This document shows, one piece after another, positions 48,898-63,559 of a stretch of 64,000 bases of DNA. The DNA is from Acidobacteriota bacterium. Lineage in GTDB: Bacteria > Acidobacteriota > Thermoanaerobaculia > UBA5066 > Gp7-AA6. Every line of letters starts with the position of its first letter. The stretch's first letter is position 1. The stretch is from contig JBLMXY010000016.1 in assembly GCA_050257975.1 (NCBI GenBank), positions 1,236 through 65,235 on the forward strand, written 5' to 3'. A program made the position numbers and the translations under genes. Under the pieces are notes generated by a model. That model worked only from the letters and a program-made list of their open reading frames with translations. It was not told where the DNA came from and did no database searches.

Positions 48898-48925
48898 GAA
48901 ACCCTGAGTCGGGACATGCATCCAA
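48898..48925 (+). promoter_or_regulatory. ECF-type promoter candidate GAAAC-N15-GCATCCAA (upstream of the anti-sigma/sigma pair)
   Basis: GAAAC at 48898-48902 and GCATCCAA at 48918-48925. GTG of the anti-sigma gene is at 48975. Confidence 0.6.
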
Positions 48926-48974
48926 CGATCGTGCGCCGAACGCTCGCTTCGAGACGATTCCCGGGGGCCGGCCG

Positions 48975-49238
48975 GTGACTCTCCGCCCCTACCTGCCCTG
49001 CCGGGAGATCATCGATTTTCTGTATCTCTATCTCTCCGGCGAGCTTCCGGAGGAGGAGAAGGCCGAGTTCGACCGGCACCTGGGCGTCTGCGACTCCTGC
49101 GTCCACTACATCGAGACCTACCGGCAGACGATCGCGCTCGGGCAGGCCGCCTTCGCGGATCCCGAGGAGCTGGAGAAGACCGGGATTCCAGACGAGCTCG
49201 TCGCGGCGATCCAGACCTCGCGCCGGCGGACTCCCTAG
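48975..49238 (+). CDS. soluble zinc-binding anti-sigma factor (ZAS, RsrA-like)
   Basis: ORF 48975..49238, 87 aa, no TM. Cys9 ... His35-x3-Cys39-x2-Cys42 (HLGVCDSC). Sits immediately upstream of an ECF sigma gene. Confidence 0.75.
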   Translation: MTLRPYLPCREIIDFLYLYLSGELPEEEKAEFDRHLGVCDSCVHYIETYRQTIALGQAAFADPEELEKTGIPDELVAAIQTSRRRTP

Positions 49239-49266
49239 GCGGGCCGCGTCGAGCCGACCCCGCGCC

Positions 49267-49926
49267 ATGGAAACACCCGCAAGCCCGGAATCCCGCTCCG
49301 TTCCGGGGCACGGTGTCGAGGGACACTCCTCCACGGGCGTCGCGGAGGCGTCGCTCGTCGCCCGCCTGCGCCAGGGCGAAGAGGACGCCTTCGAGACGGT
49401 CGTCCGCGAGTACGGAGGGCGCCTTCTCACGGTGGCGCGGCGTTTCCTGCGCAACGAGGAGGACGCCCGCGACGCGGTCCAGGAGGCCTTCCTCTCGGCC
49501 TTCCGGGCCCTGCCGACCTTCGAGGAGAGCAGCCGCCTCTCGACCTGGCTCCACCGGATCGTCATCAACGCGTCGCTGATGAGGCTGCGCAGCCGCAAGC
49601 GCAAGGCCGAGGAGTCGATCGAGGACCTGCTCCCCCGGTTCGTCGAGGACGGCCACCAGGCCGAGCCCTCCGTCCGGTGGGAGGCCTCCGCGGAAACCCT
49701 GCTCGTACGGGCCGAGACGCGCGCGCTCGTCCGGCGCTCGATCGACCGCCTCCCGGAGACGCACCGCACCGTTCTCCTGATGCGGGACATCGAGGAGCTC
49801 TCGACCGAGGAGTGCGCCCGGCTGCTCGGCGTGACCGAGAACGCCGTCAAGATCCGTCTCCACCGGGCCCGCCAGGCCCTGCGCGGACTGCTCGACCCTC
49901 ACCTGCGCCGGGCGGTGACGTCCTGA
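49267..49926 (+). CDS. ECF RNA polymerase sigma factor
   Basis: ORF 49267..49926. Region 2 is FETVVREYGGRLLTVARRFLRNEEDARDAVQEAFLSAFRALPTFEE..STWLHRIVINASLMRLR. Region 4 is LLMRDIEELSTEECARLLGVTENAVKIRLHRARQAL. Confidence 0.9.
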   Translation: METPASPESRSVPGHGVEGHSSTGVAEASLVARLRQGEEDAFETVVREYGGRLLTVARRFLRNEEDARDAVQEAFLSAFRALPTFEESSRLSTWLHRIVINASLMRLRSRKRKAEESIEDLLPRFVEDGHQAEPSVRWEASAETLLVRAETRALVRRSIDRLPETHRTVLLMRDIEELSTEECARLLGVTENAVKIRLHRARQALRGLLDPHLRRAVTS

Positions 49927-49934
49927 GGCATGCG

Positions 49935-50219
49935 GTGAGCGCGAAGGCCGCCGCGGAATTCCCGGACTCCTTCTACGGCCGGGCGTCTCACTTCACCTGT
50001 GGAGGCGCGTCCTGCCCGGCCCGCGCGGGGAAGGACGACGGCGACCGGATGGTCGCGCGGCTCGTGCGGGCCGCCTACCGCGACACCGGCTCCGCCGAGA
50101 TCCCCGGCGAGCTCCTGCGGCGCATCCTTTCGCTGCGCGAGGACATGATGAGCGGCCTCGTGAGCGTTCTCGCGGGCCTCGCCGTCTCTCCGCTGCTCGT
50201 CCTGACGGTCGGGCGCTGA
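49935..50219 (+). CDS. hypothetical small protein with a C-terminal TM segment
   Basis: GTG 49935 inside ORF 49677..50219. The hydrophobic tail is GLVSVLAGLAVSPLLVLTV. I recognise no family, and coding status is uncertain. Confidence 0.3.
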   Translation: MSAKAAAEFPDSFYGRASHFTCGGASCPARAGKDDGDRMVARLVRAAYRDTGSAEIPGELLRRILSLREDMMSGLVSVLAGLAVSPLLVLTVGR

Positions 50220-50252
50220 GTCGCGCGCCCCGCGGGGCCGATCGGCAGGCGA

Positions 50253-50280
50253 GAAACGCTCCGCGCCCGAGGGCATCCAA
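50253..50280 (+). promoter_or_regulatory. ECF-type promoter candidate GAAAC-N15-GCATCCAA (at the debranching-enzyme gene)
   Basis: GAAAC at 50253-50257 and GCATCCAA at 50273-50280. The last A of the motif is the A of the annotated ATG. Confidence 0.5.
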
Positions 50281-52340
50281 TGGTCCGGAGGCGATGCCTG
50301 AGCGATACGACGCGAACGATCACCGACTCGCAGGGGCGCGAGTCTCTGGCCGAGACCGAGTGGCTCGAGGCGGACGGCCTCGGAGGCTTCGCCGCGGGCA
50401 CGGCGGGCCTCGCGCGCACCCGCCGGTACCATGCCTTGCTCCTCACGGCCACGGCGCCCCCCGCCGGCCGCATGGTTTTGGTCAACGGGCTCGAAGCCTG
50501 GGTCGAGACGCCGGCCGGCCGCTTACCCTTCTCTTCCCAGGTCTACCTGCCCGACGTCGTGTCCCCCGACGGCCTGGCGCGGCTCGAAGCCTTCCAGTCC
50601 GACCCGTGGCCGCGCTGGACTTTCTGCCTCGAAGACGGGACGCGCGTCGAGCAGGAAATCTTCGTGTCCCGCAGGACGGCCGAGTGCGTCCTGACCTGGC
50701 GCCTCTGTCCCGGAGCCTCGTCGCAAGCCCGCCTCTCGATCCGGCCTCTCGTGTCCGGCCGCGACTACCATGCCCTCCACCACGAGAATCCCGGCTTCCG
50801 CTTCGATCCCGAGATCCGGGGTGAGACGGTCGCCTGGCGCCCCTACGAGGGGGTGCCCGGCATCGCGGCGTCCCACAACGGGCGGTACGAGCACGAGCCC
50901 CTCTGGTACCGAAACTTCCTCTACCGCGAGGAGCAGGCGCGCGGCCTCGACTGCGCCGAAGACCTGGCCGCGCCCGGGGTCTTCCACTACGACCTTTCGC
51001 GCGGCGAGGCGATCCTGATCCTGGGAGCGCTGCCGTATGGCGCCGCCGCGCCGGCCCCGGCCGGAGACGCCGCGGGCCGCGCGCGGACGCTGCGCGCCGA
51101 GGAGAAGCGCCGCCGCCTCGCGTATCCCTCGATCCTCCACCGCGCCGTCGACGACTACGTCGTGCCGCGCGGGTCCGGAAGGACGATCCTCGCGGGCTAT
51201 CCCTGGTTCACCGACTGGGGACGCGACACGTTCATCGCGCTGCGGGGCCTCTGCCTCGCAACCGGGCGGCTGGACGACGCCCGCGAGATCCTGCTCGGCT
51301 GGTCAGACGCCGTCTCCGAAGGGATGCTCCCCAACCGGTTCCCGGACCGAGGAGACGAGCCGGAGTTCAACGCCGTGGACGCCTCGCTCTGGTACGTCGT
51401 GGCGGCGCGCGACTACCTCGCGGCACGGAAGAGCTCCGGACGGCCGGCCTCCGAGCACGAGCGGGAGAAGCTCGCGCGCGCGATCGGGGAGATCCTGACG
51501 GGGTACGAGCGCGGAACCCGCTACGACATCCGCGCGGACTCCGACGGCCTGCTCGCCGCGGGCGTGCCGGGCGTGCAGCTGACGTGGATGGACGCGCGCG
51601 TCGGAGACCGGGTCGTGACACCGCGCATCGGCAAGCCCGTCGAGGTCCAGGCGCTCTGGATCAACGCGCTCAAGGTCGGGGGCGCCTTCGACCGGCGTTT
51701 CCTCGCCCTGGCCGAGATCGCGTCCGCCTCCTTCGGCCGGCGATTCTGGAACGAGGAGGCCGGAGCGCTTTACGACGTGGTGGACGTGGATCACGTCCCG
51801 GGAACCGCGGACCCGACATTCCGGCCCAACCAGATCTTCGCGGTCGGAGGCCTGCCCTACCCGGTCCTGGAAGGAGAGCGGGCGCGGCGCGTCGTGGACG
51901 CCGTCGAGCGGAAGCTCTGGACGCCGCTCGGGCTGCGATCGCTGGCACCCGGGGAGCCTTCCTACACCGGCCGCTACGAGGGAGGGCCCGCCTCGCGCGA
52001 CGGCGCCTACCACCAGGGAACGGTCTGGCCCTGGCTGACCGGGGCATTCGTCGAGGCCTGGCTGCGGGTGCGTGGCGGCGGAGCCGCCGCCAGGCGCGAA
52101 GCGCGCGAGCGCTTCCTGGCGCCGCTTCAGGCGCACCTTTCCGAGGCCGGGCTCGGGCACGTTTCGGAGATCGCCGACGCCGATCCCCCGCACCGCCCGC
52201 GGGGCTGCCCGTTCCAGGCCTGGTCGGTGGGCGAGGCCCTGCGCCTCGAGCTGCAGATTCTGGCCGAGCCGAAGACGACCGTCCTCTCCGAGCCGGCGAG
52301 GCCTCCGGCCGGCCCGGCCGGTCTTCGCCTCGCGCGCTAG
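50280..52340 (+). CDS. glycogen debranching enzyme family protein (GDE N-terminal domain plus amylo-alpha-1,6-glucosidase domain)
   Basis: ORF 50280..52340. Contains EWLEADGLGGFAAGTAGLARTRRYHALL, a bacterial GDE N-terminus, and the C-terminal GDE_C pattern (...YHQGTVWPWL...). The start conflicts with the promoter-like motif; see findings. Confidence 0.82.
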   Translation: MVRRRCLSDTTRTITDSQGRESLAETEWLEADGLGGFAAGTAGLARTRRYHALLLTATAPPAGRMVLVNGLEAWVETPAGRLPFSSQVYLPDVVSPDGLARLEAFQSDPWPRWTFCLEDGTRVEQEIFVSRRTAECVLTWRLCPGASSQARLSIRPLVSGRDYHALHHENPGFRFDPEIRGETVAWRPYEGVPGIAASHNGRYEHEPLWYRNFLYREEQARGLDCAEDLAAPGVFHYDLSRGEAILILGALPYGAAAPAPAGDAAGRARTLRAEEKRRRLAYPSILHRAVDDYVVPRGSGRTILAGYPWFTDWGRDTFIALRGLCLATGRLDDAREILLGWSDAVSEGMLPNRFPDRGDEPEFNAVDASLWYVVAARDYLAARKSSGRPASEHEREKLARAIGEILTGYERGTRYDIRADSDGLLAAGVPGVQLTWMDARVGDRVVTPRIGKPVEVQALWINALKVGGAFDRRFLALAEIASASFGRRFWNEEAGALYDVVDVDHVPGTADPTFRPNQIFAVGGLPYPVLEGERARRVVDAVERKLWTPLGLRSLAPGEPSYTGRYEGGPASRDGAYHQGTVWPWLTGAFVEAWLRVRGGGAAARREARERFLAPLQAHLSEAGLGHVSEIADADPPHRPRGCPFQAWSVGEALRLELQILAEPKTTVLSEPARPPAGPAGLRLAR

Positions 52341-52363
52341 GCTCGCGCGGCCCGCACGAGACC

Positions 52364-53818
52364 ATGGAGCCGCGGATCTCCCACGCGCACTCCCCCCTGC
52401 CGTCGGGCGTGCCCTCGACGCCGGCGCGCCTCTCGGCCGACGACCGGCACGCCGGGCGCGGCGTCGTCATGGCCTTCCTCGATTCCGGCTTCTTTCCTCA
52501 CCCCGACCTGACTTCTCCCGAGAACCGCATCGTCGCCTTCCACGCCCTCGAGGCGCCGGGACGTGCCCTCGACCCGGAGCGCGATCCGGACGACTCCGAC
52601 TGGCACGGCACGCAGACCTCGGTCGTGGCCGCCGGAAGCGGCTTTCTCTCCGGCGGCGTCTACCGCGGCCTCGCTCCGGAGGCCCGCCTCGTCCTCGTGA
52701 AGGTCGGCCGCGGCGGGCGCATCGGCGACGCGGATCTGGCCCGCGCGCTCGAGTGGATCCTCGCCCACCACGAGCGCTACGGCATCCGCGTCGTGAACGT
52801 CTCGCTCGGGGCGGACCGCGACGCGCCCCTCTCCGAAAACCGGGTCAACCGCCTCGCCGAAGAGGTCGTTTCGCGCGGCATCGTGCTCGTGGCCGCCGCT
52901 GGAAACTCCGGCTGCACGGACAGGCCGCACTCGCTGCCCCCCGCGACCGCCCCTTCCGCCATCACGGCCGGCGGGTACGACGACTCGGGCGACCCGTCGC
53001 TCTCCCGGCTCTCCCTCTACTGCTCGAGCTTCGGGCCGACGGCCGACGGCCTGTCGAAGCCCGAGTTGATTGCGCTCGCCTCCGGCGTGGCGGCGCCGAT
53101 TCTCCCGCGCACCGCCGCGTATCGCCGCGCCGTGGCCCTCTCGCGCCTGATGGCCGCGCCGGACGCCATCCTGCCGGCCCTGCTCGAGGACCTGCGGGAG
53201 GAGGGCGTCGACCTGCCCGCGCTCGCCGGATCGCCGGCCGACGGCGTGCGCCGGTGGGCGCGGGAGACGGCAAGCCGCGAGAAGCTCGTCGCCGCGCACT
53301 ACCAGCGCGTCGACGGCACGTCCTTCGCCGCGCCAATCGTCTCGGCCGTCGTCGCGCAGATGCTCGAAGCCAACCCGGCGCTCACCCCGGCGGCGGTCAA
53401 GCACCTGCTCGCCAGGACGGCCGGACGCATCCCGGGACTGCCGGTCGAACGCCAGGGCTCGGGCGTCCTCGACGCCCGGCGCGCCGTCGAGGCCGCGCTG
53501 TGGGAGCGCCACGGCGGCTCGGCCACGGCCTTCGGCGGGCCCCGCATCGCGGGAAGAAGCCTCCTCTTCTCCTATCACGACGACGCGGCGGCCCGCGTCT
53601 CGGTCGTCGGAGACTTCAACGGCTGGAATCCCGGCCGGGCGCCGCTCGCCAGGGACTCCGACGGCGTCTGGCGCGCCGAAGTGCCGCTACCTCCGCCGGG
53701 ACGCTACCGCTACAAGCTGTTCGTGGACGAAAGCCGCTGGGTCGAGGACCCGGACAACGGCGCAAGGGTGCCCGACCCCTACGGCGCCTTCGACTCGGTC
53801 ATCGAGATCCCGGCGTAG
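52364..53818 (+). CDS. S8 (subtilisin-family) serine peptidase with a C-terminal CBM48/AMPK-beta-like glycogen-binding domain
   Basis: ATG 52364 inside ORF 51584..53818. Catalytic triad contexts are AFLDSGF (Asp), HGTQTS (His) and GTSFAAP (Ser). The C-terminus is VSVVGDFNGWNPGRAPLARDSDGVWRAEVPLPPGRYRYKLFVDESRWVEDPDN. Confidence 0.8.
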   Translation: MEPRISHAHSPLPSGVPSTPARLSADDRHAGRGVVMAFLDSGFFPHPDLTSPENRIVAFHALEAPGRALDPERDPDDSDWHGTQTSVVAAGSGFLSGGVYRGLAPEARLVLVKVGRGGRIGDADLARALEWILAHHERYGIRVVNVSLGADRDAPLSENRVNRLAEEVVSRGIVLVAAAGNSGCTDRPHSLPPATAPSAITAGGYDDSGDPSLSRLSLYCSSFGPTADGLSKPELIALASGVAAPILPRTAAYRRAVALSRLMAAPDAILPALLEDLREEGVDLPALAGSPADGVRRWARETASREKLVAAHYQRVDGTSFAAPIVSAVVAQMLEANPALTPAAVKHLLARTAGRIPGLPVERQGSGVLDARRAVEAALWERHGGSATAFGGPRIAGRSLLFSYHDDAAARVSVVGDFNGWNPGRAPLARDSDGVWRAEVPLPPPGRYRYKLFVDESRWVEDPDNGARVPDPYGAFDSVIEIPA

Positions 53819-53826
53819 ATCGGCGC

Positions 53827-53854
53827 GAAACCCCTCCGCGCGCCGGGCATCCAA
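53827..53854 (+). promoter_or_regulatory. ECF-type promoter candidate GAAAC-N15-GCATCCAA (upstream of the MIP channel operon)
   Basis: GAAAC at 53827-53831 and GCATCCAA at 53847-53854. The in-frame GTG at 53860 lies only 5 nt further on. Confidence 0.55.
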
Positions 53855-53859
53855 CCCGC

Positions 53860-54735
53860 GTGCCTCTCGCCGAGACCCGCCTCGAAGGTAATCCGGCCGC
53901 GCCGGCCCGGGAATCAGGCGCGCTGGCGAGGGCGCTCGCCGGCCACTGGCCGGAGTACCTCATGGAGGCGGCCGAGCTCGGTCTCTTCATGGTCTCCGCC
54001 TGCCTCGTCACCGTCCTGCTCGAGCACCCCGACTCCCCGGCGAGGCAGGCGCTTCCCGATGCCTTCCTCCGTCGGCTGCTCACGGGGCTCGCGATGGGCG
54101 CGACCGCGGTCGCGATCGTCTTCTCTCCTCTCGGAAAGAGAAGCGGCGCGCACTTCAACCCGTCGGTGACCCTGGCCTTCTGGAGGCTCGGCAAGGTGGC
54201 CGGCCCGGACGCCTTCTTCTACGGCCTCTCGCAGTTTGGGGGCGCGGTCGCCGGTGTGGCGGTCGCGGGGGCCCTGGCCGGCCCGCGAATCGCGCATCCT
54301 TCGGTCCGCTACGCCGCGACGGAGCCAGGCCCGGGCGGATCGGCCGCCGCCTTCGCCGCGGAGGCCGCGATCTCCTTCCTGCTGATGTCCGTCGTCCTGC
54401 GGGTCTCCAACCACGCCCGCCTCGCGCGCTGGACGGGAGTGTTCGCCGGGTCGCTCGTCGCGCTCTTCATCGCGTTCGAGGCCCCGGTCTCCGGAATGAG
54501 CATGAACCCGGCGCGGACGTTCGGCTCCGCCGCGTGGGCCGGAGCCTTCCACCCGCTCTGGATCTACTTGACCGCGCCGCCGCTCGGAATGCTCGCCGCC
54601 GCGGAGGTCTACCGACGCTCCGCGGGAGCGCGCGCGGTGCACTGCGCCAAGCTCCATCACGAGAACCGCGAGCGCTGCATCTTTCGGTGCGACTACGCCT
54701 CGCTCGAGGCGGCCCGCGCGGGAAGAAAGGAGTGA
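53860..54735 (+). CDS. MIP/aquaporin-family channel
   Basis: This is the tail of ORF 52072..54735. The two half-helix motifs are HFNPSVT and MNPARTF. The segment HWPEYLMEAAELGLFMVSAC resembles conserved N-termini of this subfamily, which favours the GTG at 53860 over ATG 53962. Confidence 0.8.
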   Translation: MPLAETRLEGNPAAPARESGALARALAGHWPEYLMEAAELGLFMVSACLVTVLLEHPDSPARQALPDAFLRRLLTGLAMGATAVAIVFSPLGKRSGAHFNPSVTLAFWRLGKVAGPDAFFYGLSQFGGAVAGVAVAGALAGPRIAHPSVRYAATEPGPGGSAAAFAAEAAISFLLMSVVLRVSNHARLARWTGVFAGSLVALFIAFEAPVSGMSMNPARTFGSAAWAGAFHPLWIYLTAPPLGMLAAAEVYRRSAGARAVHCAKLHHENRERCIFRCDYASLEAARAGRKE

Positions 54736-54737
54736 CC

Positions 54738-56312
54738 GTGCCCGCCTCGAACAATCATTACGACGTTCTCATCATCGGCTCGGGCGCCGGAGGCGGCACC
54801 CTCGCCTGGGCGCTCGCGCCGACGGGCAAGAAGATTCTGCTGCTCGAGCGCGGCGACTACGTTCCGCGCGAAAAGGCCAACTGGTCCACCCGCGCGGTCA
54901 ATCTCGAAGGCCGCTACAACACCAAGGAGGTCTGGCGGGACCGCAAGGGAGAGCCGCTCCATCCGCACACCAACTACTGGGTCGGCGGCAACACCAAGTT
55001 CTACGGCGCGGCGCTCTTCCGCCTTCGCCGGGAGGACTTCGGGCCGCTCCGGCACCACGGCGGCGTTTCCCCCGCCTGGCCCGTCTCCTACGAGGAGTTC
55101 GAGCCGTTCTACGCCGAGGCCGAGCGGCTCTACCAGGTCCACGGAGAGGCCGGGGCCGATCCGACCGAGCCTCCGCGCTCCGGGCCCTACCCGCATCCGC
55201 CGGTCTCGCACGAGCCCCGCATCGAGCGGCTCGCGGAGGACTTCGCGCGGGCGGGGTGCCGCCCCTTCCACGTTCCGCTCGGCATCATGCTCGACGAGAA
55301 GAACCGTCGCCAGAGCGCCTGCATCCGCTGCGACACCTGCGACGGCCATCCCTGCCTCCTCCAGGCCAAGGCGGACGCGCAGACGATCTGCGTCGACCCG
55401 GCGTTGAAGCACCCGAACGTGACGCTGTTGACCAACGCGAAGGTCACGCTCCTCGCGACCAGCGCCTCGGGGCGCGAGGTCACGAAGGTCTTCGTCGAGC
55501 GCGACGGCGCCCCCGAAGAGTACACCGCCGGCATCGTCGTGGCCGCCTGCGGCGCGATCAACTCGGCCGCGCTTCTCCTCCGCTCGGCCAACGAGCGGCA
55601 CCCCAACGGCCTCGCCAATTCCTCGGACGTCGTCGGGCGCCACTACATGGGGCACGTCAACTCGGTGTTGATGGCCATCTCGAAGTGCCCGAACCCGACC
55701 GTCTTTCAGAAGACGCTCGCCGTCAACGACTTCTATTTCGGCTCGAAGGAATGGAACCACCCGATGGGCCACATCTCTTTCGTCGGGAAGCTCGACGGGG
55801 AGACTCTGAAGGCCGGCGCCCCGGCCATCGCGCCCGGATTCACGCTCGAGCTGATGGCGAAGCACTCGCTCGACTTCTGGCTCACCTCCGAGGACCTGCC
55901 CGACCCGGACAACCGCGTCACGCTGAACGGCGCGGGCGAGATCGTCCTTTCCTACAAGCCCAACAACGAAGAGGGGCACAAGCGGCTGATCGCCAGGCTC
56001 CAGGACCTGATGAAGCAGCAGACCCGGTGCGACATCCACGGCGGGGACTGCCATGTCGGGCTCTTTGCCCGCAGCCTCTACCTCGGCCAGCGCATCCCGC
56101 TGGCAGGCGTGGCCCACCAGAACGGCACGATCCGCTTCGGCGACGACCCGAAGTCTTCGGCCCTCGACCGCAACTGCAAGGCCCACGATGTCGACAACCT
56201 CTACGTCGTGGACGCGAGCTTCTTCCCGTCGAGCGGGGCGGTCAACCCGGCGCTGACGATCATCGCCAACGCGCTGCGGGTCGCGGACCATCTGAAGGAG
56301 CGCCTGCAGTGA
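54738..56312 (+). CDS. GMC-family FAD-dependent oxidoreductase
   Basis: This is the tail of ORF 54534..56312. Contains YDVLIIGSGAGGGTLA (Rossmann FAD motif) and the C-terminal GMC pattern (...NLYVVDASFFPSSGAVNPALTI...). Start is GTG 54738 (AGGAG 5 nt upstream) or GTG 54732. Confidence 0.85.
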   Translation: MPASNNHYDVLIIGSGAGGGTLAWALAPTGKKILLLERGDYVPREKANWSTRAVNLEGRYNTKEVWRDRKGEPLHPHTNYWVGGNTKFYGAALFRLRREDFGPLRHHGGVSPAWPVSYEEFEPFYAEAERLYQVHGEAGADPTEPPRSGPYPHPPVSHEPRIERLAEDFARAGCRPFHVPLGIMLDEKNRRQSACIRCDTCDGHPCLLQAKADAQTICVDPALKHPNVTLLTNAKVTLLATSASGREVTKVFVERDGAPEEYTAGIVVAACGAINSAALLLRSANERHPNGLANSSDVVGRHYMGHVNSVLMAISKCPNPTVFQKTLAVNDFYFGSKEWNHPMGHISFVGKLDGETLKAGAPAIAPGFTLELMAKHSLDFWLTSEDLPDPDNRVTLNGAGEIVLSYKPNNEEGHKRLIARLQDLMKQQTRCDIHGGDCHVGLFARSLYLGQRIPLAGVAHQNGTIRFGDDPKSSALDRNCKAHDVDNLYVVDASFFPSSGAVNPALTIIANALRVADHLKERLQ

Positions 56313-57328
56313 TCCCGCGCCGCGTCCGCCGCGCGTTCGTTCTCCTCTTCGCGGCGGCCGCGCTCGGCCTCCGGGCAGAGCAGCCGCAAGCGGGCCTGGT
56401 GACACGCCTCGACTCGGTCGGGATGACGGTCTCGGACCTCGATCGCGCCGTCGACTTCTACACGAAGGTGCTGACGTTCGAGAAGGTCTCCGAAGTCGAG
56501 GTGGCCGGCGAGAGCTACGAGAGACTCGAGGGCGTCTTCGGCCTTCGCATGCGGGTCGCGCGGCTGCGTCTGGGAGACGAGGCGATCGAGCTCACCGAGT
56601 ATCTGGCGCCGCGGGGTCGGCCGATCCCGTCCGATCTCAAGAGCAACGACCGCTCCTTCCAGCACATCGCGATCATCGTGAGGGACATGGACGAGGCGTA
56701 TCGACGCCTGCGGCAATTCCACGTCGAACACGCTTCCTCCGGCCCGCAGAAGCTGCCCGAGTGGAACAAGAACGCGGCCGGAATCTCCGCCTTCTACTTC
56801 CGCGACCCCGACGGCCATCCGCTCGAGATCCTGCAGTTTCCGCCCGACAAGGGAAACGCCCGGTGGCACCGGCCGACCGACCGCCTCTTCCTCGGCATCG
56901 ACCACACGGCGATCGTCGTCTCCGACACGGAAGCGAGCCTGAAGCTCTACCGGAATCTGCTGGGGTTCCAGGTGGCCGGCGAGAGCGAGAACTACGGATC
57001 GGAGCAGGAGCACTTGAACAGCGTCTTCGGCGCGCGCCTTCGCATCACGAGCCTTCGCCCGCCGTCAGGCCCCTCGGTCGAATTCCTGGAGTACCTGGCG
57101 CCGCGCGACGGGCGTACGGCGCCCGAAACGCGCGCCAACGACGTGCTGCACCGGCAGACGCGCCTGGAGACGGCCGACGCCGAGGCCGCCGCCCGACGGC
57201 TCTTCGCCGCGAGGGCTCCCTTCGTTTCGCCCGGCGCCGTGGCGCTGCCGGAGGGCCGGCTCGGCTTCCGAAAGGGCTTTCTCGTCGCGGACCCCGACGG
57301 GCACGTTCTCGAGATCGTGGAGAGGTGA
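56309..57328 (+). CDS. exported two-domain VOC (glyoxalase/bleomycin-resistance/dioxygenase) family protein
   Basis: GTG 56309 (GTGA overlap). Signal peptide RRAFVLLFAAAALGLRA. Two VOC modules (LDSVGMTVSDLDRAVDFY... and IDHTAIVVSDTEASLKLY...), each ending in a DPDGHxLEI motif. Confidence 0.78.
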   Translation: MIPRRVRRAFVLLFAAAALGLRAEQPQAGLVTRLDSVGMTVSDLDRAVDFYTKVLTFEKVSEVEVAGESYERLEGVFGLRMRVARLRLGDEAIELTEYLAPRGRPIPSDLKSNDRSFQHIAIIVRDMDEAYRRLRQFHVEHASSGPQKLPEWNKNAAGISAFYFRDPDGHPLEILQFPPDKGNARWHRPTDRLFLGIDHTAIVVSDTEASLKLYRNLLGFQVAGESENYGSEQEHLNSVFGARLRITSLRPPSGPSVEFLEYLAPRDGRTAPETRANDVLHRQTRLETADAEAAARRLFAARAPFVSPGAVALPEGRLGFRKGFLVADPDGHVLEIVER

Positions 57329-57332
57329 CGCG

Positions 57333-57914
57333 ATGAGCTCCGCCGCCGCCGACAGCCGCCCGCTCTACCTTCCGGTCATTCTCGGCACGCCGCGCCAGGG
57401 GCGCTTCTCCGAGCACGTCGCGCGCTTCGTGCTCGGCCAGGTTCGCAAGCTGCCAGGCGTCGAGACCGAGCTCGTGGACGTGCGCACGCTCGCCTTTCCG
57501 ACCTCGGACGCGGGAGAAGACATCAAGAACGCCGACTTCTCGAAGCTCTGCATGCGGGCCGACGGGTTCGTGATCGTGGCGCCCGAGTACAACCACGCCT
57601 ACCCGGGCATCCTGAAGCACGCCCTGGACACGAACCTGAAGGAGTACGTCCACAAGGCGGCCGGGGTCGTGGGCGTCTCGGCCGGCCCCTGGGGCGGAAC
57701 GCGGGTCGTCCAGAGCCTGCTGCCGGTGCTGCGGGAGCTGGGCCTCGTGGCGATCTTCTGGGACGGCAACTTCACGAACGTGCAAAAGCTGTTCGGCGCC
57801 ACGGGTGACATCCTCGACGCCGCTTACGAGCGGCGGCTCGAGAAGTTCTTGAAGGAGCTCGTCTGGATGGCGAAGGTCCTGCGCCACGGCCGGGAGAACG
57901 TGCCGCTCGACTGA
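57333..57914 (+). CDS. NAD(P)H-dependent FMN reductase family protein
   Basis: ORF 57333..57914. Contains ILGTPRQGRFS and FVIVAPEYNHAYPGILKHALD, typical of NADPH-dependent FMN reductases. Confidence 0.82.
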   Translation: MSSAAADSRPLYLPVILGTPRQGRFSEHVARFVLGQVRKLPGVETELVDVRTLAFPTSDAGEDIKNADFSKLCMRADGFVIVAPEYNHAYPGILKHALDTNLKEYVHKAAGVVGVSAGPWGGTRVVQSLLPVLRELGLVAIFWDGNFTNVQKLFGATGDILDAAYERRLEKFLKELVWMAKVLRHGRENVPLD

Positions 57915-57939
57915 GGCGCGGCCCGAAGAGGAGATCGCG

Positions 57940-58128
57940 ATGCCCGAAAGGAAGAAGATCCCGTGCCCGCAGTGCGGCACCCCGATGAATTTCCACGCGG
58001 AGAAGGTCGACTACGGCGCCCTGCTCGCCTCGACGCCGCCGGACCCGCGCTGGGGCGGCGTGCTCGCGCAGTTCCACACCTGCCCCAATCCGAAGTGCCG
58101 CTTCATCCTCGAGCGTCCCGCAGTCTGA
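57940..58128 (+). CDS. small zinc-ribbon protein (hypothetical)
   Basis: ORF 57940..58128, 62 aa. CPQCG...CPNPKC. No family recognised. Confidence 0.45.
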   Translation: MPERKKIPCPQCGTPMNFHAEKVDYGALLASTPPDPRWGGVLAQFHTCPNPKCRFILERPAV

Positions 58129-58136
58129 CCCCTCTC

Positions 58137-58164
58137 GAAACCGCGGCGCCGCCCGCGCATCCAA
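58137..58164 (+). promoter_or_regulatory. ECF-type promoter candidate GAAAC-N15-GCATCCAA
   Basis: GAAAC at 58137-58141 and GCATCCAA at 58157-58164. An AAAGGAGGA Shine-Dalgarno sequence and ATG 58212 follow. Confidence 0.6.
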
Positions 58165-58211
58165 TCCTCCGAAGTCGCGACGATTCGCTCGCGAGCAAAA
58201 GGAGGAACTCG

Positions 58212-58619
58212 ATGCATCGCAACCGCAAGAGCCCCTGGATTCGAATCGCGCCCGCGGCCCTGGCGGCGCTCGCCTGGCTCGGCGCGTCGGCCGCCCTCGC
58301 CGCGGACGGCCACACCACCAAGCCGTTCACGGGCGTCAAGGTCAACGGCGGAACCGTCACACACACCAAGGTCGAAGGCAAGAACGTTCTGACTCTCTCC
58401 GACGACTTCGTCGACCCGAAGACCCCGGACGTGCACTGGCAGGTCGTCGACTCGAAAGGCAACGTCTACCTGCTCCAGAAGGTCGCGATCAAGGGAGACA
58501 AGGTCAACAAGTCGATCACGCTGCCTTCCTACGTGCCCGACGTCGCCACGGTGCAGATCTACTGCGCGTGGGCGGAGGCGGTCCTGGGCGAGGCGCCGTT
58601 CGATCAGCCGGTCAAGTAG
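58212..58619 (+). CDS. exported small beta-rich protein, possibly DM13-like
   Basis: ATG 58212 with a strong SD. Signal peptide APAALAALAWLGASAALA. The pattern ...LTLSDDFVDPKTPDVHWQVV...VQIYCAWAEAVLGEAPF loosely parallels the DM13 pattern of the 61300 gene (LRLTEFETSNGPDVQVYLV...VTVWCRRFGVNFATAPL). Confidence 0.55.
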   Translation: MHRNRKSPWIRIAPAALAALAWLGASAALAADGHTTKPFTGVKVNGGTVTHTKVEGKNVLTLSDDFVDPKTPDVHWQVVDSKGNVYLLQKVAIKGDKVNKSITLPSYVPDVATVQIYCAWAEAVLGEAPFDQPVK

Positions 58620-58643
58620 CGGCCGGCGCGATCAGGAGAAGCC

Positions 58644-59123
58644 ATGAACACGATCTCGAAGGGAATTCTCGCGGCCGCGCTCGCCCTGGCGGCCGCGCCC
58701 GCGCTCCGCGCGCAGGTCGCCGACAAGAAGACGCTGTCGCTCGAGGGCGCACGCAAGGTCATCGCCGCGGCCGAAGCGAAGGCAAAGGAGCTCTCGGCGC
58801 CGGGCGGCGTCATCGCGGTCGTGGACGACGGGGGCAACCTGATCGCGGTCGAGCGGCTGGACGGCACGTTCGCCGCGGGCGCGCTGATCTCGATCGGCAA
58901 GGCCCGCACGGCCGTCATCTTCAAGAAGCCCACGCGGTTCTTCGAGGAGCTGATCAAGAACGGCCGCACGCCGATGATCGCCTTGAACGACTTCACGCCG
59001 CTTCAAGGGGGCGTGCCGGTCCTCTCCGGCGGACAGGTCGTGGGAGGTGTCGGCGTCTCGGGCGCCGCGAGCGCCCAGCAGGACGAGGAGCTCGCGATCG
59101 CCGGCGCGGGAGCGATCCGATGA
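58644..59123 (+). CDS. GlcG/HbpS-like (DUF336) haem-binding family protein, exported
   Basis: ORF 58644..59123. Signal peptide, then LSLEGARKVIAAAEAKAKE...AVVDDGGNLIAVERLDG...ISIGKARTA...GGVPV...GGVGVSG, characteristic of the GlcG family. Confidence 0.8.
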   Translation: MNTISKGILAAALALAAAPALRAQVADKKTLSLEGARKVIAAAEAKAKELSAPGGVIAVVDDGGNLIAVERLDGTFAAGALISIGKARTAVIFKKPTRFFEELIKNGRTPMIALNDFTPLQGGVPVLSGGQVVGGVGVSGAASAQQDEELAIAGAGAIR

Positions 59124-59569
59124 GCGCGCGAATCCACCTCGCCGGAGCGGCCGCGCTCGTCCTGATCGCCGCCGCGGCCGCGGCAGAGGTAGAGACTCCT
59201 CCCGTGTCCTACTATCCCGCGGCGGACGTCGCCGCCGCCTTCGCGAAGGGAGCGGTCCTCTTCGACGGGAAGGACGGCCGCAACTACATGATTCACGCCT
59301 CGCGCCGCGAGGCGGCCGGCATGGCCGAGGTCCACGCGAAGGACGCCGACCTGATCTACGTGATCGAGGGGACGGCCACCCTCGTCACCGGCGGCGCCGC
59401 GGTCGACCCCAGGACGGTCGCTCCCGACGAGATCCGGGGAACGTCCATCCAGGGCGGAGAGACCCGCAAGATTTCCAAGGGGGACGTCCTCATCGTTCCG
59501 CGCGGCACCCCGCACTGGTTCCGCGAAGTCACCAACCCGTTCCTCTACTACGTCGTCAAGGTCCGTTAG
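59120..59569 (+). CDS. exported cupin-domain protein
   Basis: ATG 59120 (ATGA overlap). Signal peptide. Contains AEVHAKDADLIYVIEGTATL...GDVLIVPRGTPHWF (cupin motifs). Confidence 0.7.
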   Translation: MSARIHLAGAAALVLIAAAAAAEVETPPVSYYPAADVAAAFAKGAVLFDGKDGRNYMIHASRREAAGMAEVHAKDADLIYVIEGTATLVTGGAAVDPRTVAPDEIRGTSIQGGETRKISKGDVLIVPRGTPHWFREVTNPFLYYVVKVR

Positions 59570-59579
59570 GCGGGTCGCG

Positions 59580-61211
59580 ATGAGAAACCGCAGACGATCG
59601 GCGCTCTTCCTCGGGACCGCCCTCCTGTGCCTGCCGGTCCTCGCCGGAGCGCAGGCGCCCCAGGATCCCCCTGCCGGAAAGCCCGAGGCCTCCATCGACC
59701 TCGCGACGGAGGACGGCGTCCGGCTGGTGAAGGGCCAGTGGCGCTACAGCGACGCACGGGTCGTCGAGACGGAGTTTCCGGGCCCGGGTCCGGACAGTCA
59801 GCCGACCGGTCCGGCCGGCAGGACCCATGACGTCATTCCCCACGCCGGCGCCGCCGACTTCGACGACTCGACGTGGGAAGCCGTCGCTCCCGCGGCCCTC
59901 TCCGGCCGGCGCGGCCACGGGCGCCTGGGTTTTGCCTGGTACCGCATGACGTTCACGGTGCCGGAGAAAATCGGCGCGTACGATCCTTCCGGAAAGACCG
60001 TCGTCTTCCAGACGACGCTCGACGACGCCGCGGAGGTCTGGGTCGACGGGGAGCTCGCGCGCCATCTCGGGCAGAAGGGCGGTTCCATGGTCGCGGGCTG
60101 GAACGCGCCCAACCGCCTCGTCGTCGGCCGGCGCGTGAAGCCGGGGCAGAAGATCTCGCTCGCCGTCTTTGCTGTCAACGGCCCGCTCTCGAATCCCCCC
60201 ACCAACTTCATCTGGATGCGCGAGGCGAGGCTCGAGTTCTACCCGGGCGCGCCCGGTCCGGTCGCGATCACCCCGGCCGAGGTCAACGTGACGGTGATCC
60301 GCAAGGACCCGGCCATCGACGCGATCGTCGGGCCGAACCCGAAGATCTGGAAAGTCGCCGAGGGCTTTCGGTTCACGGAGGGCCCGATCTGGATCCCGGG
60401 CGAGAAGCACCTGCTCTTCTCCGACCCCAACAGCAACGTCATCTACCGATACGTCCCGGATGGCAAGCTCGAGGTCTTCCGCGAGCCTTCCGGCTACGCG
60501 GGCGCGGACATCGGCGAGTACGGCCAACCGGGCTCCAACGGCCTGACGCTCGACCGGGAGGGCCGCCTCACCATCGACCAGCACGGCAACCGCCGGGTGA
60601 TCCGCCTCGAGAAGGACGGCCGGGAGACCGTGATCGCCGACCGCTACAAGGGAAAGCGCCTGAACAGCCCCAACGACCTCGTCTATCGCTCCGACGGCAC
60701 GCTCTTCTTCACCGACCCTCCGTTCGGCCTGCCGAAGTTCTTCGACGACCCGCGCAAGGAGTTGAAGTTCTCGGGCGTCTACGCCGTCACGCCGAAGGGA
60801 AAGCTGCGCCTGCTGACCGACGCGCTGACCGGTCCCAACGGCATCGCCTTCTCTCCCGACGAGAAGTGGCTCTACGTGGGCGACTGGGACGAGAAGAAGA
60901 AGGTCGTCATGCGCTACCCCGTGCGCCCCGACGGATCGGTCGGCAAGGGCGACGTCTTCTTCGACATGACCTCGGCGCCGGGCGAAGACGCGATCGACGG
61001 CATCAAGGTGGATCAGAAGGGCGATCTCTACGTCTCCGGGCCGGGCGGCCTCTGGGTGCTCTCGCCGGAAGGCAAGCACCTCGGCACGATCGTCCCGCCC
61101 AGGCATCCGCACAACTTCGCCTGGGGAGACGAGGACGGCAAGACTCTCTATCTCTGCGCGCGCTCGGGGCTCTACCGGATGCGGCTGGCGGTCCCGGGAA
61201 TCCGGCCGTAG
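59580..61211 (+). CDS. exported fusion of a galactose-binding-like beta-sandwich and an SMP-30/gluconolactonase/LRE-like beta-propeller
   Basis: ORF 59580..61211. The N-terminal half carries FDDSTWEAVAP...GFAWYRMTFTVP...AAEVWVDGE. The C-terminal half carries FTEGPIW...SNGLTLDREGRL...NSPNDLVYRSDGTLFFTDP...GPNGIAFSPDEKWLYV. Confidence 0.8.
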   Translation: MRNRRRSALFLGTALLCLPVLAGAQAPQDPPAGKPEASIDLATEDGVRLVKGQWRYSDARVVETEFPGPGPDSQPTGPAGRTHDVIPHAGAADFDDSTWEAVAPAALSGRRGHGRLGFAWYRMTFTVPEKIGAYDPSGKTVVFQTTLDDAAEVWVDGELARHLGQKGGSMVAGWNAPNRLVVGRRVKPGQKISLAVFAVNGPLSNPPTNFIWMREARLEFYPGAPGPVAITPAEVNVTVIRKDPAIDAIVGPNPKIWKVAEGFRFTEGPIWIPGEKHLLFSDPNSNVIYRYVPDGKLEVFREPSGYAGADIGEYGQPGSNGLTLDREGRLTIDQHGNRRVIRLEKDGRETVIADRYKGKRLNSPNDLVYRSDGTLFFTDPPFGLPKFFDDPRKELKFSGVYAVTPKGKLRLLTDALTGPNGIAFSPDEKWLYVGDWDEKKKVVMRYPVRPDGSVGKGDVFFDMTSAPGEDAIDGIKVDQKGDLYVSGPGGLWVLSPEGKHLGTIVPPRHPHNFAWGDEDGKTLYLCARSGLYRMRLAVPGIRP

Positions 61212-61226
61212 GGGCGCCGGGCCCGC

Positions 61227-61255
61227 GAAACGCGGGCTCCTCGGCCGGCATCCAA
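61227..61255 (+). promoter_or_regulatory. ECF-type promoter candidate GAAAC-N16-GCATCCAA
   Basis: GAAAC at 61227-61231 and GCATCCAA at 61248-61255. An AAGGAGG Shine-Dalgarno sequence and ATG 61300 follow. Confidence 0.6.
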
Positions 61256-61299
61256 CGGACCGAGCGGAACGAAGAACAACCGCAAGGAGGATCAACGCC

Positions 61300-62193
61300 A
61301 TGAACAAACGCTCGCTCCTCGTCCTTGGCGCCGCCGTCGTCGGCGCCGTCGCCTGGTATCTCTTCCGGCCCGAACGGCTCGTGGTCAACAAGACCGTGAG
61401 CGAAGGCTTTCCTGCCGCGGCCGTTGCGGCCTCCCACGCCGGCGCCGCGCCGGCATCGGGCCCGGTGGCGCTCGCTTCGGGACGCTTCCACGGCGTGGCC
61501 CACAAGACCCGGGGACTCGCCACGATCTACCAGTCGCCCGAAGGAAAGCGGACGCTCCGCCTGACGGAGTTCGAGACCTCCAACGGCCCCGACGTGCAGG
61601 TGTATCTGGTCGCCGCGTCCGACGCCAGCGACAACGAGACCGTCACCGGGGCCGGCTTCGTCCCCGTGGGCGCGTTGAAAGGCAACATCGGAGACCAGAA
61701 CTACGATCTGCCTTCCGAAGTCGATCTCGCCAAGTACCGCGCCGTCACGGTCTGGTGCCGCCGCTTCGGCGTCAACTTCGCGACCGCGCCGCTCTCGGCC
61801 TCCGCGCCGGCCGTTCCGGCCGCCCCCGCGGCGCTCGCCTCGGGCGCCTTCCATGGCGTCGCCCACAAGACTCACGGCGTCGCGACGCTCTATCAGCTGC
61901 CCGACGGCAAGCGGACACTGCGCCTGACCGACTTCGAAACCTCCAACGGCCCCGACGTGCAGGTGTACCTGGTCGCCGCGTCCGACGCCAGCGACAATGA
62001 GACCGTTACCAGGGCCGGCTTCGTTCCCCTCGGGGCTCTCAAGGGCAACATCGGCGACCAGAACTACGAGGTGCCCTCGGATCTCGACCTGGGCAAGTAC
62101 AAGGCCGTCACCGTCTGGTGCCGCCGTTTCGGCGTCAACTTCGCCACCGCTCCGCTCGCGCCGGCCGCCATGCCGATGGCCTCGAAGTCCTGA
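61300..62193 (+). CDS. membrane-anchored/exported protein with two tandem DM13 domains
   Basis: ORF 61300..62193. N-terminal TM LLVLGAAVVGAVAWYLF. Two nearly identical modules of about 107 aa each: FHGVAHKT.G.AT.YQ.P.GKRTLRLT.FETSNGPDVQVYLVAASDASDNETVT...VTVWCRRFGVNFATAPL. Confidence 0.8.
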   Translation: MNKRSLLVLGAAVVGAVAWYLFRPERLVVNKTVSEGFPAAAVAASHAGAAPASGPVALASGRFHGVAHKTRGLATIYQSPEGKRTLRLTEFETSNGPDVQVYLVAASDASDNETVTGAGFVPVGALKGNIGDQNYDLPSEVDLAKYRAVTVWCRRFGVNFATAPLSASAPAVPAAPAALASGAFHGVAHKTHGVATLYQLPDGKRTLRLTDFETSNGPDVQVYLVAASDASDNETVTRAGFVPLGALKGNIGDQNYEVPSDLDLGKYKAVTVWCRRFGVNFATAPLAPAAMPMASKS

Positions 62194-62206
62194 GGCGGGA
62201 CAAGGC

Positions 62207-63559
62207 GTGACCCGTCAAGAACCCACGCGGATCGTCATCCTCGGCGGCGGCTTCGCCGGCCTCTACGCGGCGCTCGAGCTCGAGCGCACGCTGGCCGGCG
62301 ATCCCGCCGTCGAGGTGACGCTCGTCAACCAGGACAACTTCTTCCTCTTCACGCCCATGCTTCACGAGATCGCCGCGAGCGATCTCGACGTGACGCACAT
62401 CGTCAACCCGATCCGCAAGCTCCTCGACCGGGTTCGGTTCTTCCACGGCCGCATCGAGTCCATCGACCTGGAACGGCGCCGCGTCGGGGTCTTCCACGGC
62501 GACAGCCGGCACCACCACGAGCTTTCCTACGACCATCTGGTTCTCGGCTGCGGCGCCGTGACGAACTTCTTCGGCATCCCGGGCCTCGAGGAGCGAGCCC
62601 TGACCATGAAATCGCTCGCCGACGCCGTGGCGCTGCGCAACCGTCTCATCGCCCAGCTCGAAGAGGCCGACTTCGAGTGCTCGATCGGCCGGCGGGACCA
62701 CCTGCTGTCCGTCGTCGTGGCGGGCGGCGGGTTCTCGGGAGTCGAGACGGTCGGCGCCGTCAACGACTTCGTCCGCGAAGCCCTCGCCTTCTATCCCCAC
62801 CTCGCCCAGGAGCGCGTCCGCGTCGTCCTGGTGCACCCGGGCCCGGTCGTCCTGCCGGAGCTGGGCGAGAAGCTGGGCCTCTACGCGCAGGAGAAGCTGC
62901 GCCGGCGCCAGGTCGAGGTGCGGGTGAACACGAAGGTGGTCGGCGTCTCCGACGGCGGCGTGCTCCTCGACGACGGGACCGAGATTCCCGCGGGCACCCT
63001 CGTCTGGACGGCCGGCACCTCGCCCCATCCGCTGCTTGCCGCGCTGCCGTGCCGGACCGAACGGGGACGCGTCGTCGTCGACGAGTTTCTCGCCGTGCCG
63101 GGCTGGCCGGGCGTGTGGGCGGCCGGCGATGCGGCCGTCGTGCCGGACCCGAGCACGGGCCGCCCCCACCCTCCCACCGCGCAGCACGCGCTGCGCGAAG
63201 GCCGCGTCCTCGCGCAGAACCTGGCGGCGGCGACCCGCGGGAAAGCGCTTCGCCCCTTCGCCTTCTCGACGCTCGGCCAGCTCGCGACGATCGGCCGACG
63301 CACCGGCGTCGCGCGCATCCTGGGCCTCAACTTCTCGGGCTTTCTCGCCTGGTGGCTGTGGCGGACGATCTACCTCTCGAAGCTTCCGCGCTTCGAAAAG
63401 AAAGTGCGGGTCGTCCTCGACTGGACGCTCGACCTGCTCTTCTCCAAGGACCTCGTCGAGATTCACACCTCGCGGGCGGCGCACGCCCGGCCACCCGAAG
63501 AGGCCAGGGGGCCTCTCCCGCTGTCCGAAGGGGCGGCCCTGGAGGCCCGGTCCGCATAG
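62207..63559 (+). CDS. ndh: type II NADH dehydrogenase (NDH-2) / FAD-dependent pyridine nucleotide-disulfide oxidoreductase
   Basis: GTG 62207 inside ORF 61997..63559. Contains RIVILGGGFAGL, a second dinucleotide fold VVVAGGGFSGVE, and GDAA. Confidence 0.82.
   Translation: MTRQEPTRIVILGGGFAGLYAALELERTLAGDPAVEVTLVNQDNFFLFTPMLHEIAASDLDVTHIVNPIRKLLDRVRFFHGRIESIDLERRRVGVFHGDSRHHHELSYDHLVLGCGAVTNFFGIPGLEERALTMKSLADAVALRNRLIAQLEEADFECSIGRRDHLLSVVVAGGGFSGVETVGAVNDFVREALAFYPHLAQERVRVVLVHPGPVVLPELGEKLGLYAQEKLRRRQVEVRVNTKVVGVSDGGVLLDDGTEIPAGTLVWTAGTSPHPLLAALPCRTERGRVVVDEFLAVPGWPGVWAAGDAAVVPDPSTGRPHPPTAQHALREGRVLAQNLAAATRGKALRPFAFSTLGQLATIGRRTGVARILGLNFSGFLAWWLWRTIYLSKLPRFEKKVRVVLDWTLDLLFSKDLVEIHTSRAAHARPPEEARGPLPLSEGAALEARSA

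Follow-up and report, generated by a model that had tools for sequence, protein, structure and literature searches.

The described systems that come closest to the locus analyzed here are SigW of Bacillus subtilis, a sigma factor of the extracytoplasmic function (ECF) type, with its anti-sigma factor RsiW, SigR and RsrA of Streptomyces coelicolor, and RpoE of Escherichia coli and AlgU of Pseudomonas, with the anti-sigma factors RseA and MucA. Promoters of ECF sigma factors carry AAC in the -35 element and CGT in the -10 element as hallmarks, which were later relaxed (PMC8103513), and their prediction from motifs over-represented upstream of autoregulated sigma factor genes is established practice (PMC3817407, PMC7776599, PMC8103513). 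In this work we analyze a 64-kb stretch (64,000 nt; G+C 69.5%) of the genome of an uncultured soil Acidobacteriota bacterium of the class Thermoanaerobaculia (contig JBLMXY010000016.1), referred to as the window. An original prediction, made from the letters of this stretch, had recognized in it five copies of a bipartite motif, GAAAC-N15/16-GCATCCAA, and had taken them for the promoters of a putative regulon governed by a neighboring sigma and anti-sigma factor pair. Judging from the statistics, conservation and positions of the motif and from its association with one sigma factor family, we consider it highly likely that RNA polymerase uses the five sites as promoters when it carries the ECF sigma factor encoded at 49267-49926.

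This 219-aa protein, encoded on the + strand like all other features of the cluster, shows Pfam matches to Sigma70_r2 (residues 46-112) and Sigma70_r4_2 (residues 154-205) only, which is the domain content that defines ECF (group IV) sigma factors (PMC8103513). Its closest sequences in the PDB are an unnamed sigma factor (8z6g), AlgU (6in7), RpoE and SigW, with E-values for RpoE and AlgU of 6e-28 to 4e-25, and it is closer to these than to the actinobacterial SigH/SigR type. It falls below all NCBIfam equivalog cut-offs, the best match being PRK11922 (183.4 versus 204 bits), a model on which our literature search found nothing relevant. With the RpoE model it reaches 112.7 bits (cut-off 236) and with the SigW models 110-121 bits (cut-offs 209-243), so the window sigma factor is not a SigW orthologue. 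The zf-HC2 anti-sigma factor (Pfam PF13490, E = 3.3e-11) is an 87-aa soluble protein without a membrane segment, encoded at 48975-49238, and its gene ends 28 nt before the start of the sigma factor gene; the two genes would thus be adjacent members of one transcript. Its zinc-ligand positions, C9 and H35-LGV-C39-DS-C42, reproduce the H-x3-C-x2-C signature and upstream ligand of the zinc-binding anti-sigma (ZAS) family, and the protein of known structure that it matches best is RsrA (E = 0.004, aligned over residues 8-45), followed by RsiW.

Each described system shares a different part of this arrangement. SigW, like the window protein, is a two-domain ECF sigma factor and is found among its best PDB and NCBIfam matches, and the SigW -35 box, ATTGAAACCTTT (PMC8103513), has the same GAAAC core followed by C, with a spacing of about 16 nt in both. 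RsiW also has an N-terminal zf-HC2 domain, but it spans the membrane and is removed by regulated proteolysis, whereas the window anti-sigma factor is soluble, has 87 aa and has its gene upstream of that for the sigma factor. The -10 element of SigW promoters is CGTA, where the window has CATC(C)AA; the likeness to SigW promoters proposed in the original prediction holds for the -35 element (GAAACC), and in the -10 element CATC takes the place of the CGTC seen in most ECF promoters. RsrA is, like the window protein, a small soluble ZAS whose ligands are spaced identically (Cys, 26 residues, His-x3-Cys-x2-Cys), and the SigR/RsrA system, which belongs to group ECF12 and responds to thiol-oxidative stress, resembles the window in its regulon rich in redox enzymes and in its autoregulated sigma factor operon, a trait predicted for the window. 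In contrast to SigR/RsrA, however, the window anti-sigma gene precedes rather than follows the sigma factor gene. SigR promoters have the form GGAAT-N18-GTT, and those of RpoE and AlgU carry, at the same distance from AAC, a TC step with an A-rich tail (TCAAA or TCTGA) comparable with ATCCAA in the window. The RpoE -35 element, GGAACTT (PMC8103513), contains AAC as the window -35 element does. RpoE and AlgU are autoregulated, as predicted here, but RseA and MucA, unlike the window anti-sigma factor, are non-zinc, membrane-spanning proteins subject to envelope-stress proteolysis, and the RpoE/AlgU regulon serves envelope biogenesis, unlike the window targets. The main text of the ECF reclassification paper (PMC7826278) describes no matching ECF group, and the motif may already be catalogued for one; in the literature searched, the literal motif turned up only as primer sequences.

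The window holds exactly five copies of the 8-mer GCATCCAA, always on the + strand (48918, 50273, 53847, 58157 and 61248), against a mean of 0.94 copies in 100 dinucleotide-preserving shuffles, none of which reached five. Each copy has its GAAAC partner upstream, with a spacer of 15 nt at 48898, 50253, 53827 and 58137 and of 16 nt at 61227. A pattern search thus reproduced exactly the positions and partners given in the original prediction, and its estimate that they lie far beyond chance is borne out by the shuffles, since the bipartite pattern was not matched once in the 100 sequences. When up to three mismatches were allowed, the additional matches in the window all had three mismatches and occurred at chance frequency; copies with one or two mismatches were absent, and the distribution of the motif is therefore bimodal. 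Of four looser regular expressions run on both strands, three returned just the five sites and the fourth gave four extra matches compared with three on control strands, which is chance level. All five copies are located between + strand genes with Pfam-confirmed families, so that the claim of an exclusively intergenic placement stood, with the reservation that the mechanically called debranching-enzyme open reading frame (ORF), starting with ATG at 50280, overlaps the last base of one motif copy. A scan of the whole sequence collection for GAAACC-N14/15-GGCATCCAA yielded at least 120 matches, with single ones in unrelated taxa, and was uninformative on enrichment, because scattered matches to 15 bases are the chance expectation in 596 Gb.

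Conservation of the motif was assessed in relatives of the sigma factor, of which 264 were found by scanning one genome per species; the best 80 loci (1.18 Mb; loci carry L numbers below) were analyzed. The closest sigma factors, 73-74% identical, come from metagenome-assembled Thermoanaerobaculia and other Acidobacteriota, and more distant ones from Planctomycetota, Myxococcota, others and one isolate, Psychromonas sp. SP041. An anti-sigma homologue is present in 59 of the 80 loci. The relaxed motif G[AT]AAC-N15/16-GCATCnnA has 68 matches in these loci and none on reversed or complement-only control strands; half of the matches (34/68) are located at most 300 nt upstream of a window-gene homologue in the same orientation, and a single one falls inside such a gene. 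Sites with at most two mismatches are found within 900 nt upstream of the sigma factor gene in 23 loci, and the motif before the sigma operon is kept in several phyla down to sigma factors of about 50% identity, in agreement with the autoregulation proposed in the original prediction. In other genomes the motif also precedes orthologues of the other candidate targets, namely the genes for the glycogen debranching enzyme (GDE), S8 protease, MIP channel, GMC oxidoreductase, GlcG, type II NADH dehydrogenase (NDH-2) and DM13 proteins.

Gene order around the motif varies by clade. The closest clade (L001-L008, L014) has the motif first, followed by the genes for the anti-sigma factor, the sigma factor, a second anti-sigma factor and the debranching enzyme, and L014 shares still more of the window layout, with a motif before its MIP-GMC-VOC-FMN reductase set and another after it. 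In other clades the motif is followed by a short-chain dehydrogenase, the sigma factor and the anti-sigma factor, and in Psychromonas by a DM13 protein and the sigma factor. Two genomes carry two motif copies at the sigma operon (L005 at 9569 and 9910; L007 at 24 and 362), one before the anti-sigma gene and one between the anti-sigma and sigma genes, an arrangement that would permit synthesis of the sigma factor in the absence of the inhibitor. Further genes found behind the motif in relatives, identified with Pfam and not represented in the window cluster, are the following: a 367-aa glucose dehydrogenase (L001 14705, L002 6698, L006 16429, L265 6458) and, at L028 9424, L009 2540, L064 8867 and L016 9827, a secreted MsrA, a class I pyridine-nucleotide disulfide oxidoreductase, a pirin and a DUF1223 protein. 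The short-chain dehydrogenase is likewise motif-preceded.

A weight matrix was trained exclusively on the 23 sigma-upstream sites of other genomes. Applied to the window, it scores the five sites at 22.0-27.1 bits, while the next best site on either strand reaches 11.4 bits and the best site on control strands 13.2. The matrix was blind to the window and built from autoregulatory sites only, and yet it recovered the four non-autoregulatory window sites as well. These results leave next to no probability for the possibility that the copies are chance matches, or remnants of repeats or mobile elements, without a regulatory role. The five copies have in common just 13 specified bases, and this paucity is all that speaks for such an origin; the possibility is refuted by the shuffles, the counts in the 80 loci and the weight matrix, and it is at odds with the occurrence of the motif at orthologous positions in genomes whose sigma factors are 50-74% identical. 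The spacers bear no relation to one another, nor do the flanks, and the window has no longer repeat spanning the five copies, so that they are not repeat copies and an origin from a repeat or mobile element was ruled out.

A profile built from 82 motif instances, with 15 nt between GAAAC and GCATC in 47 and 16 nt in 35, shows (C/T)G(A/T)AAC on the -35 side, followed by C in 70%, and on the -10 side C (67%) and G (74%) ahead of GCATC, a variable pair and A. The AAC of ECF -35 elements is present in the GAAAC of all five window copies and in G[AT]AAC across relatives, and its distance from the -10 element falls in the usual range of about 16-17 nt, with AAC-N16-CATC in four window copies and N17 in the fifth. 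A pyrimidine-purine pair is reported to mark the transcription starts of ECF promoters (PMC7776599), and among the 82 instances the fifth nucleotide past the motif is a pyrimidine in 65% and the sixth a purine in 77%. The MIP orthologues of six genomes (the window and five others) have an in-frame GTG or ATG 6-14 nt past the motif, at such a distance that the mRNA would be leaderless or nearly so; for the window, the MIP mRNA is probably leaderless and would start at the GTG at 53860. At the debranching-enzyme gene in the window (50287-50300), L005 and L007, the predicted transcript start is directly followed by GGAGG, 4-6 nt and CTG. The comparison of these orthologues points to the CTG at 50298 as the probable start of the enzyme, instead of the mechanically called ATG at 50280, which would lie outside a transcript originating at this site. 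The pyrimidine-purine step, the MIP start codons and the GGAGG-CTG arrangement are all compatible with promoter function.

The same features bear on whether the motif could be an operator, bound by a conventional repressor or activator that accompanies the cluster, with the true promoters located elsewhere. Short conserved intergenic motifs can indeed be operators, but this one is asymmetric and lacks both dyad and direct-repeat symmetry, its orientation is always that of the downstream gene, and its AAC-N16/17-xxTC layout is the geometry of an ECF promoter. A scan of positions 46-64 kb revealed no sigma-70-like promoter nearby, no further promoter would fit between a site and a gene whose start codon can follow after as little as 6 nt, and the sigma factor is the only DNA-binding regulator conserved in the loci. 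We accordingly regard an operator as very improbable.

The link between motif and sigma factor can be separated from the link between motif and target genes by means of a second set of 80 loci, retrieved through the DM13 protein. Six of these loci (65 kb) encode a sigma factor at least 41.5% identical to that of the window, and they contain 8 motif copies, which precede DM13, GMC or small secreted protein genes. The other 74 loci (771 kb) hold the same target gene families and have 2 copies. The motif hence follows the sigma factor family and not the target genes. In Terriglobales, an orthologous MIP-DM13-GMC-VOC cluster adjoins an ECF sigma factor of 35-39% identity, and about 125 nt upstream of MIP a different conserved motif is found, consisting of TTGTCAC(C)AAA, about 13 nt and GAATC(C/G)GAT (L206, L207, L216, L218, L223, L227, L232, L235 and L252). 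This motif was derived from an alignment by eye, and a stricter regular expression matched only 4 sites; it shares with the window motif the ATC..A of the -10 part and differs in the -35 element. A different motif beside a more distant sigma factor is the behavior that would be expected of a promoter co-evolving with its sigma factor.

Several observations weigh against reading the five sites as promoters of the adjacent sigma factor, or against parts of the circuit that this reading implies. The -10 element has CAT, within the block GCATC, instead of the usual CGT, with the TC and the distal A retained. The anti-sigma factor reaches 30.3 bits against an RsrA equivalog cut-off of 62.5, so far below it that the protein is ZAS-like but not an RsrA orthologue, and not all ZAS proteins are redox-sensitive. 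The stress signal suggested for the system is read from ligand spacing and gene content only. Terminator predictions at 46-64 kb gave chance-level matches and none that was convincing, and read-through could for this reason bridge several of the operon boundaries. Finally, a second sigma factor, 38-42% identical, is encoded within 5 kb in L036, L041, L044 and L047. This last observation, together with the abundance of ECF sigma factors in bacteria and the related but different motif beside the 35-39% identical sigma factor of Terriglobales, favors the idea that the sites are ECF-type promoters read by a paralogous ECF sigma factor encoded elsewhere, either instead of the adjacent one or alongside it. 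We deem this improbable, given that the motif stands before the sigma factor's own operon in at least 23 relatives, that its presence tracks sigma factors at least 41.5% identical to that of the window, and that more distant sigma factors are accompanied by a different -35 element. The conservation of the motif, the cross-validation of the matrix, the association with the sigma factor family and the start-site features all support the ECF-promoter reading of the original prediction.

For promoters read by the adjacent sigma factor, the contacts, start sites, inducing signal and physiological role that we infer can be outlined as a switch. Region 4 of the sigma factor would bind the -35 element GAAAC(C) and region 2 the -10 element (G)CATC(C)AA, and transcription would start 6-7 nt past the 8-mer. 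Without stress, the sigma factor would be held by the 87-aa soluble zinc-finger anti-sigma factor; under stress the latter would be inactivated, most likely because its Cys/His zinc site becomes oxidized or alkylated, as happens in RsrA, and the sigma factor set free. The freed sigma factor would transcribe its own operon, providing both positive feedback and resynthesis of the inhibitor, and the four neighboring operons. The predicted regulon comprises redox enzymes, some cytoplasmic and some exported, together with a MIP channel, NDH-2, a glycogen debranching enzyme and a glycogen-binding protease. Its FMN reductase, NDH-2, GMC and VOC proteins, along with MsrA, the disulfide oxidoreductase and other motif-preceded genes of relatives, make a redox-stress response the likely role. 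More speculatively, the debranching enzyme, the glucose dehydrogenase and the lactonase-like protein might supply reducing power from glycogen.

The cluster itself spans five putative operons. The first, which holds the anti-sigma and sigma factor genes, is preceded by promoter 1 (GAAAC-N15-GCATCCAA, 48898-48925; exact match, 22.8 bits), the candidate autoregulatory site, whose position is the same in L001, L002, L006, L014 and others. Promoter 2 (50253-50280; exact match, 23.1 bits) lies before the debranching-enzyme/S8 operon, and variant motif sites are found before the GDE gene in L001, L014, L036, L041, L044, L047 and L055. This operon encodes, according to Pfam, a glycogen debranching enzyme with GDE_N and GDE_C domains (50298-52340, from the proposed CTG start) and a subtilase of family S8 with a C-terminal CBM48 glycogen-binding module (52364-53818). 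Promoter 3 (53827-53854; exact match, 26.8 bits) precedes the MIP-GMC-VOC-FMN reductase operon, an arrangement that recurs in L014, L036, L041, L044, L047 and L214. Its products, all with Pfam matches, are the MIP channel (aquaporin; 53860-54735, with the GTG start 6 nt past the motif), a GMC-family flavoprotein oxidoreductase (54732-56312), a tandem VOC/glyoxalase-fold protein with a signal-peptide-like N-terminus (56309-57328) and an NADPH-dependent FMN reductase (57333-57914). The GMC oxidoreductase contains a Cys cluster, CIRCDTCDGHPC (C-x2-C-x2-C-x4-C, window 55320-55355), which resembles an iron-sulfur motif and is unusual for soluble GMC enzymes. A gap of 222 nt (57915-58136) separates promoter 4 from the stop codon of the FMN reductase gene; it has no family-matching ORF, Rfam match or terminator-like structure, and an Rfam scan of the whole window gave no match.

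Promoter 4 (58137-58164; exact match, 22.0 bits) stands before an operon that encodes a secreted 135-aa protein (58212-58619), a GlcG/HbpS-like protein with a signal peptide (58644-59123; Pfam PF03928), a secreted 149-aa protein (59120-59569) and an SMP-30/gluconolactonase-like protein with a signal peptide (59580-61211; Pfam SGL). It has counterparts before the DM13-like-GlcG-SGL orthologues of L229 and before GlcG in L041 and L044. Pfam confirmed the families assigned to the genes beforehand, except for two members of this operon: the 135-aa protein, labeled DM13-like, has no Pfam match and is weakly DM13-like in a BLASTP comparison with the DM13 repeats (E = 0.002), and the cupin label of the 149-aa protein found no Pfam or NCBIfam match in its favor. 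Promoter 5, with its 16-nt spacer (61227-61255; exact match, 27.1 bits), precedes the genes for a membrane-anchored protein with two DM13 domains (61300-62193; Pfam DM13 over two stretches) and for NDH-2 (62207-63559; Pfam Pyr_redox_2 and NDH2_C), and has counterparts before DM13 orthologues in L228, L229, L248 and L250. The two DM13 domains of this 297-aa protein are a tandem duplication (61461-61760 and 61824-62123, 83% identical at the DNA level), and many relatives have a version with a single DM13 domain. The G+C content of the cluster (70.3%) is close to that of the first 46 kb (69.1%), and a recent genomic island was ruled out.

In the close clade the sigma factor is flanked by two ZAS paralogues, one soluble and one tail-anchored. 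The tail-anchored paralogue (ZAS2) of L001-L014 has 105-109 aa and a hydrophobic C-terminal tail. The window retains, at 49935-50219, what alignment with these proteins identifies as a diverged remnant: the C-terminal half aligns, whereas the N-terminal half is devoid of the Cys/His ligands (H-x2-C-x4-C, not H-x3-C-x2-C) and the GTG start overlapping the sigma stop codon is missing. The remnant was annotated as a 94-aa gene by a gene caller on Logan contig L281. The second anti-sigma copy of the window looks decayed. An identical sigma factor was found on one 8.1-kb Logan contig (run SRR24208146) and on no other, and a search with the two-domain DM13 protein for further contigs of the same genome returned no record.

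Beyond the sigma factor relatives, the gene families of the cluster (window 50298-63559) form a module of wider distribution. MIP, DM13, GMC, VOC, FMN reductase, NDH-2, GlcG, SMP-30, GDE and S8-CBM48 genes are clustered in varying order in metagenome-assembled genomes (L201-L280) labeled as several classes of Acidobacteriota and as Planctomycetota, Bacteroidota, Gemmatimonadota, Binatia, Dadabacteria, Ignavibacteria and others. The module proteins are 55-80% identical to those of the window, and an ECF sigma factor lies within 6 kb in about half of the loci. Our literature search found no paper on this gene module, and searches for the DM13 domain gave nothing relevant. It is conceivable, and we put it forward tentatively, that the five operons are one lineage's version of a widespread, undescribed module with which a sigma factor promoter motif has co-evolved in some lineages (GAAAC...GCATC here, TGTCAC...GAATC in Terriglobales). 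If so, the module would represent a common response of soil bacteria to redox or desiccation stress, one that may draw reducing power from glycogen and has been studied in no cultured model.

An autoregulated ECF promoter with a local regulon is in itself a routine finding, and the distinguishing features of this one are the CATC variant of the -10 element and the anti-sigma factor encoded upstream; the conserved multi-phylum module merits separate study more than the promoter does. For the class Thermoanaerobaculia, of which nearly all knowledge comes from metagenomes, the locus nonetheless offers a testable circuit composed of sigma factor, anti-sigma factor, promoter consensus and at least 15 predicted target genes. 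With its stringent 13-base promoter and its sigma/anti-sigma pair, it is a candidate orthogonal switch similar to those that Rhodius et al. mined (PMC3817407), and the predicted regulon would place proteins without a known role (DM13, GlcG-like and two unannotated secreted proteins) in the context of redox stress. Far upstream of the cluster, the sole tRNA gene of the window, a tRNA-Ser with anticodon TGA, is located at 10516-10615.

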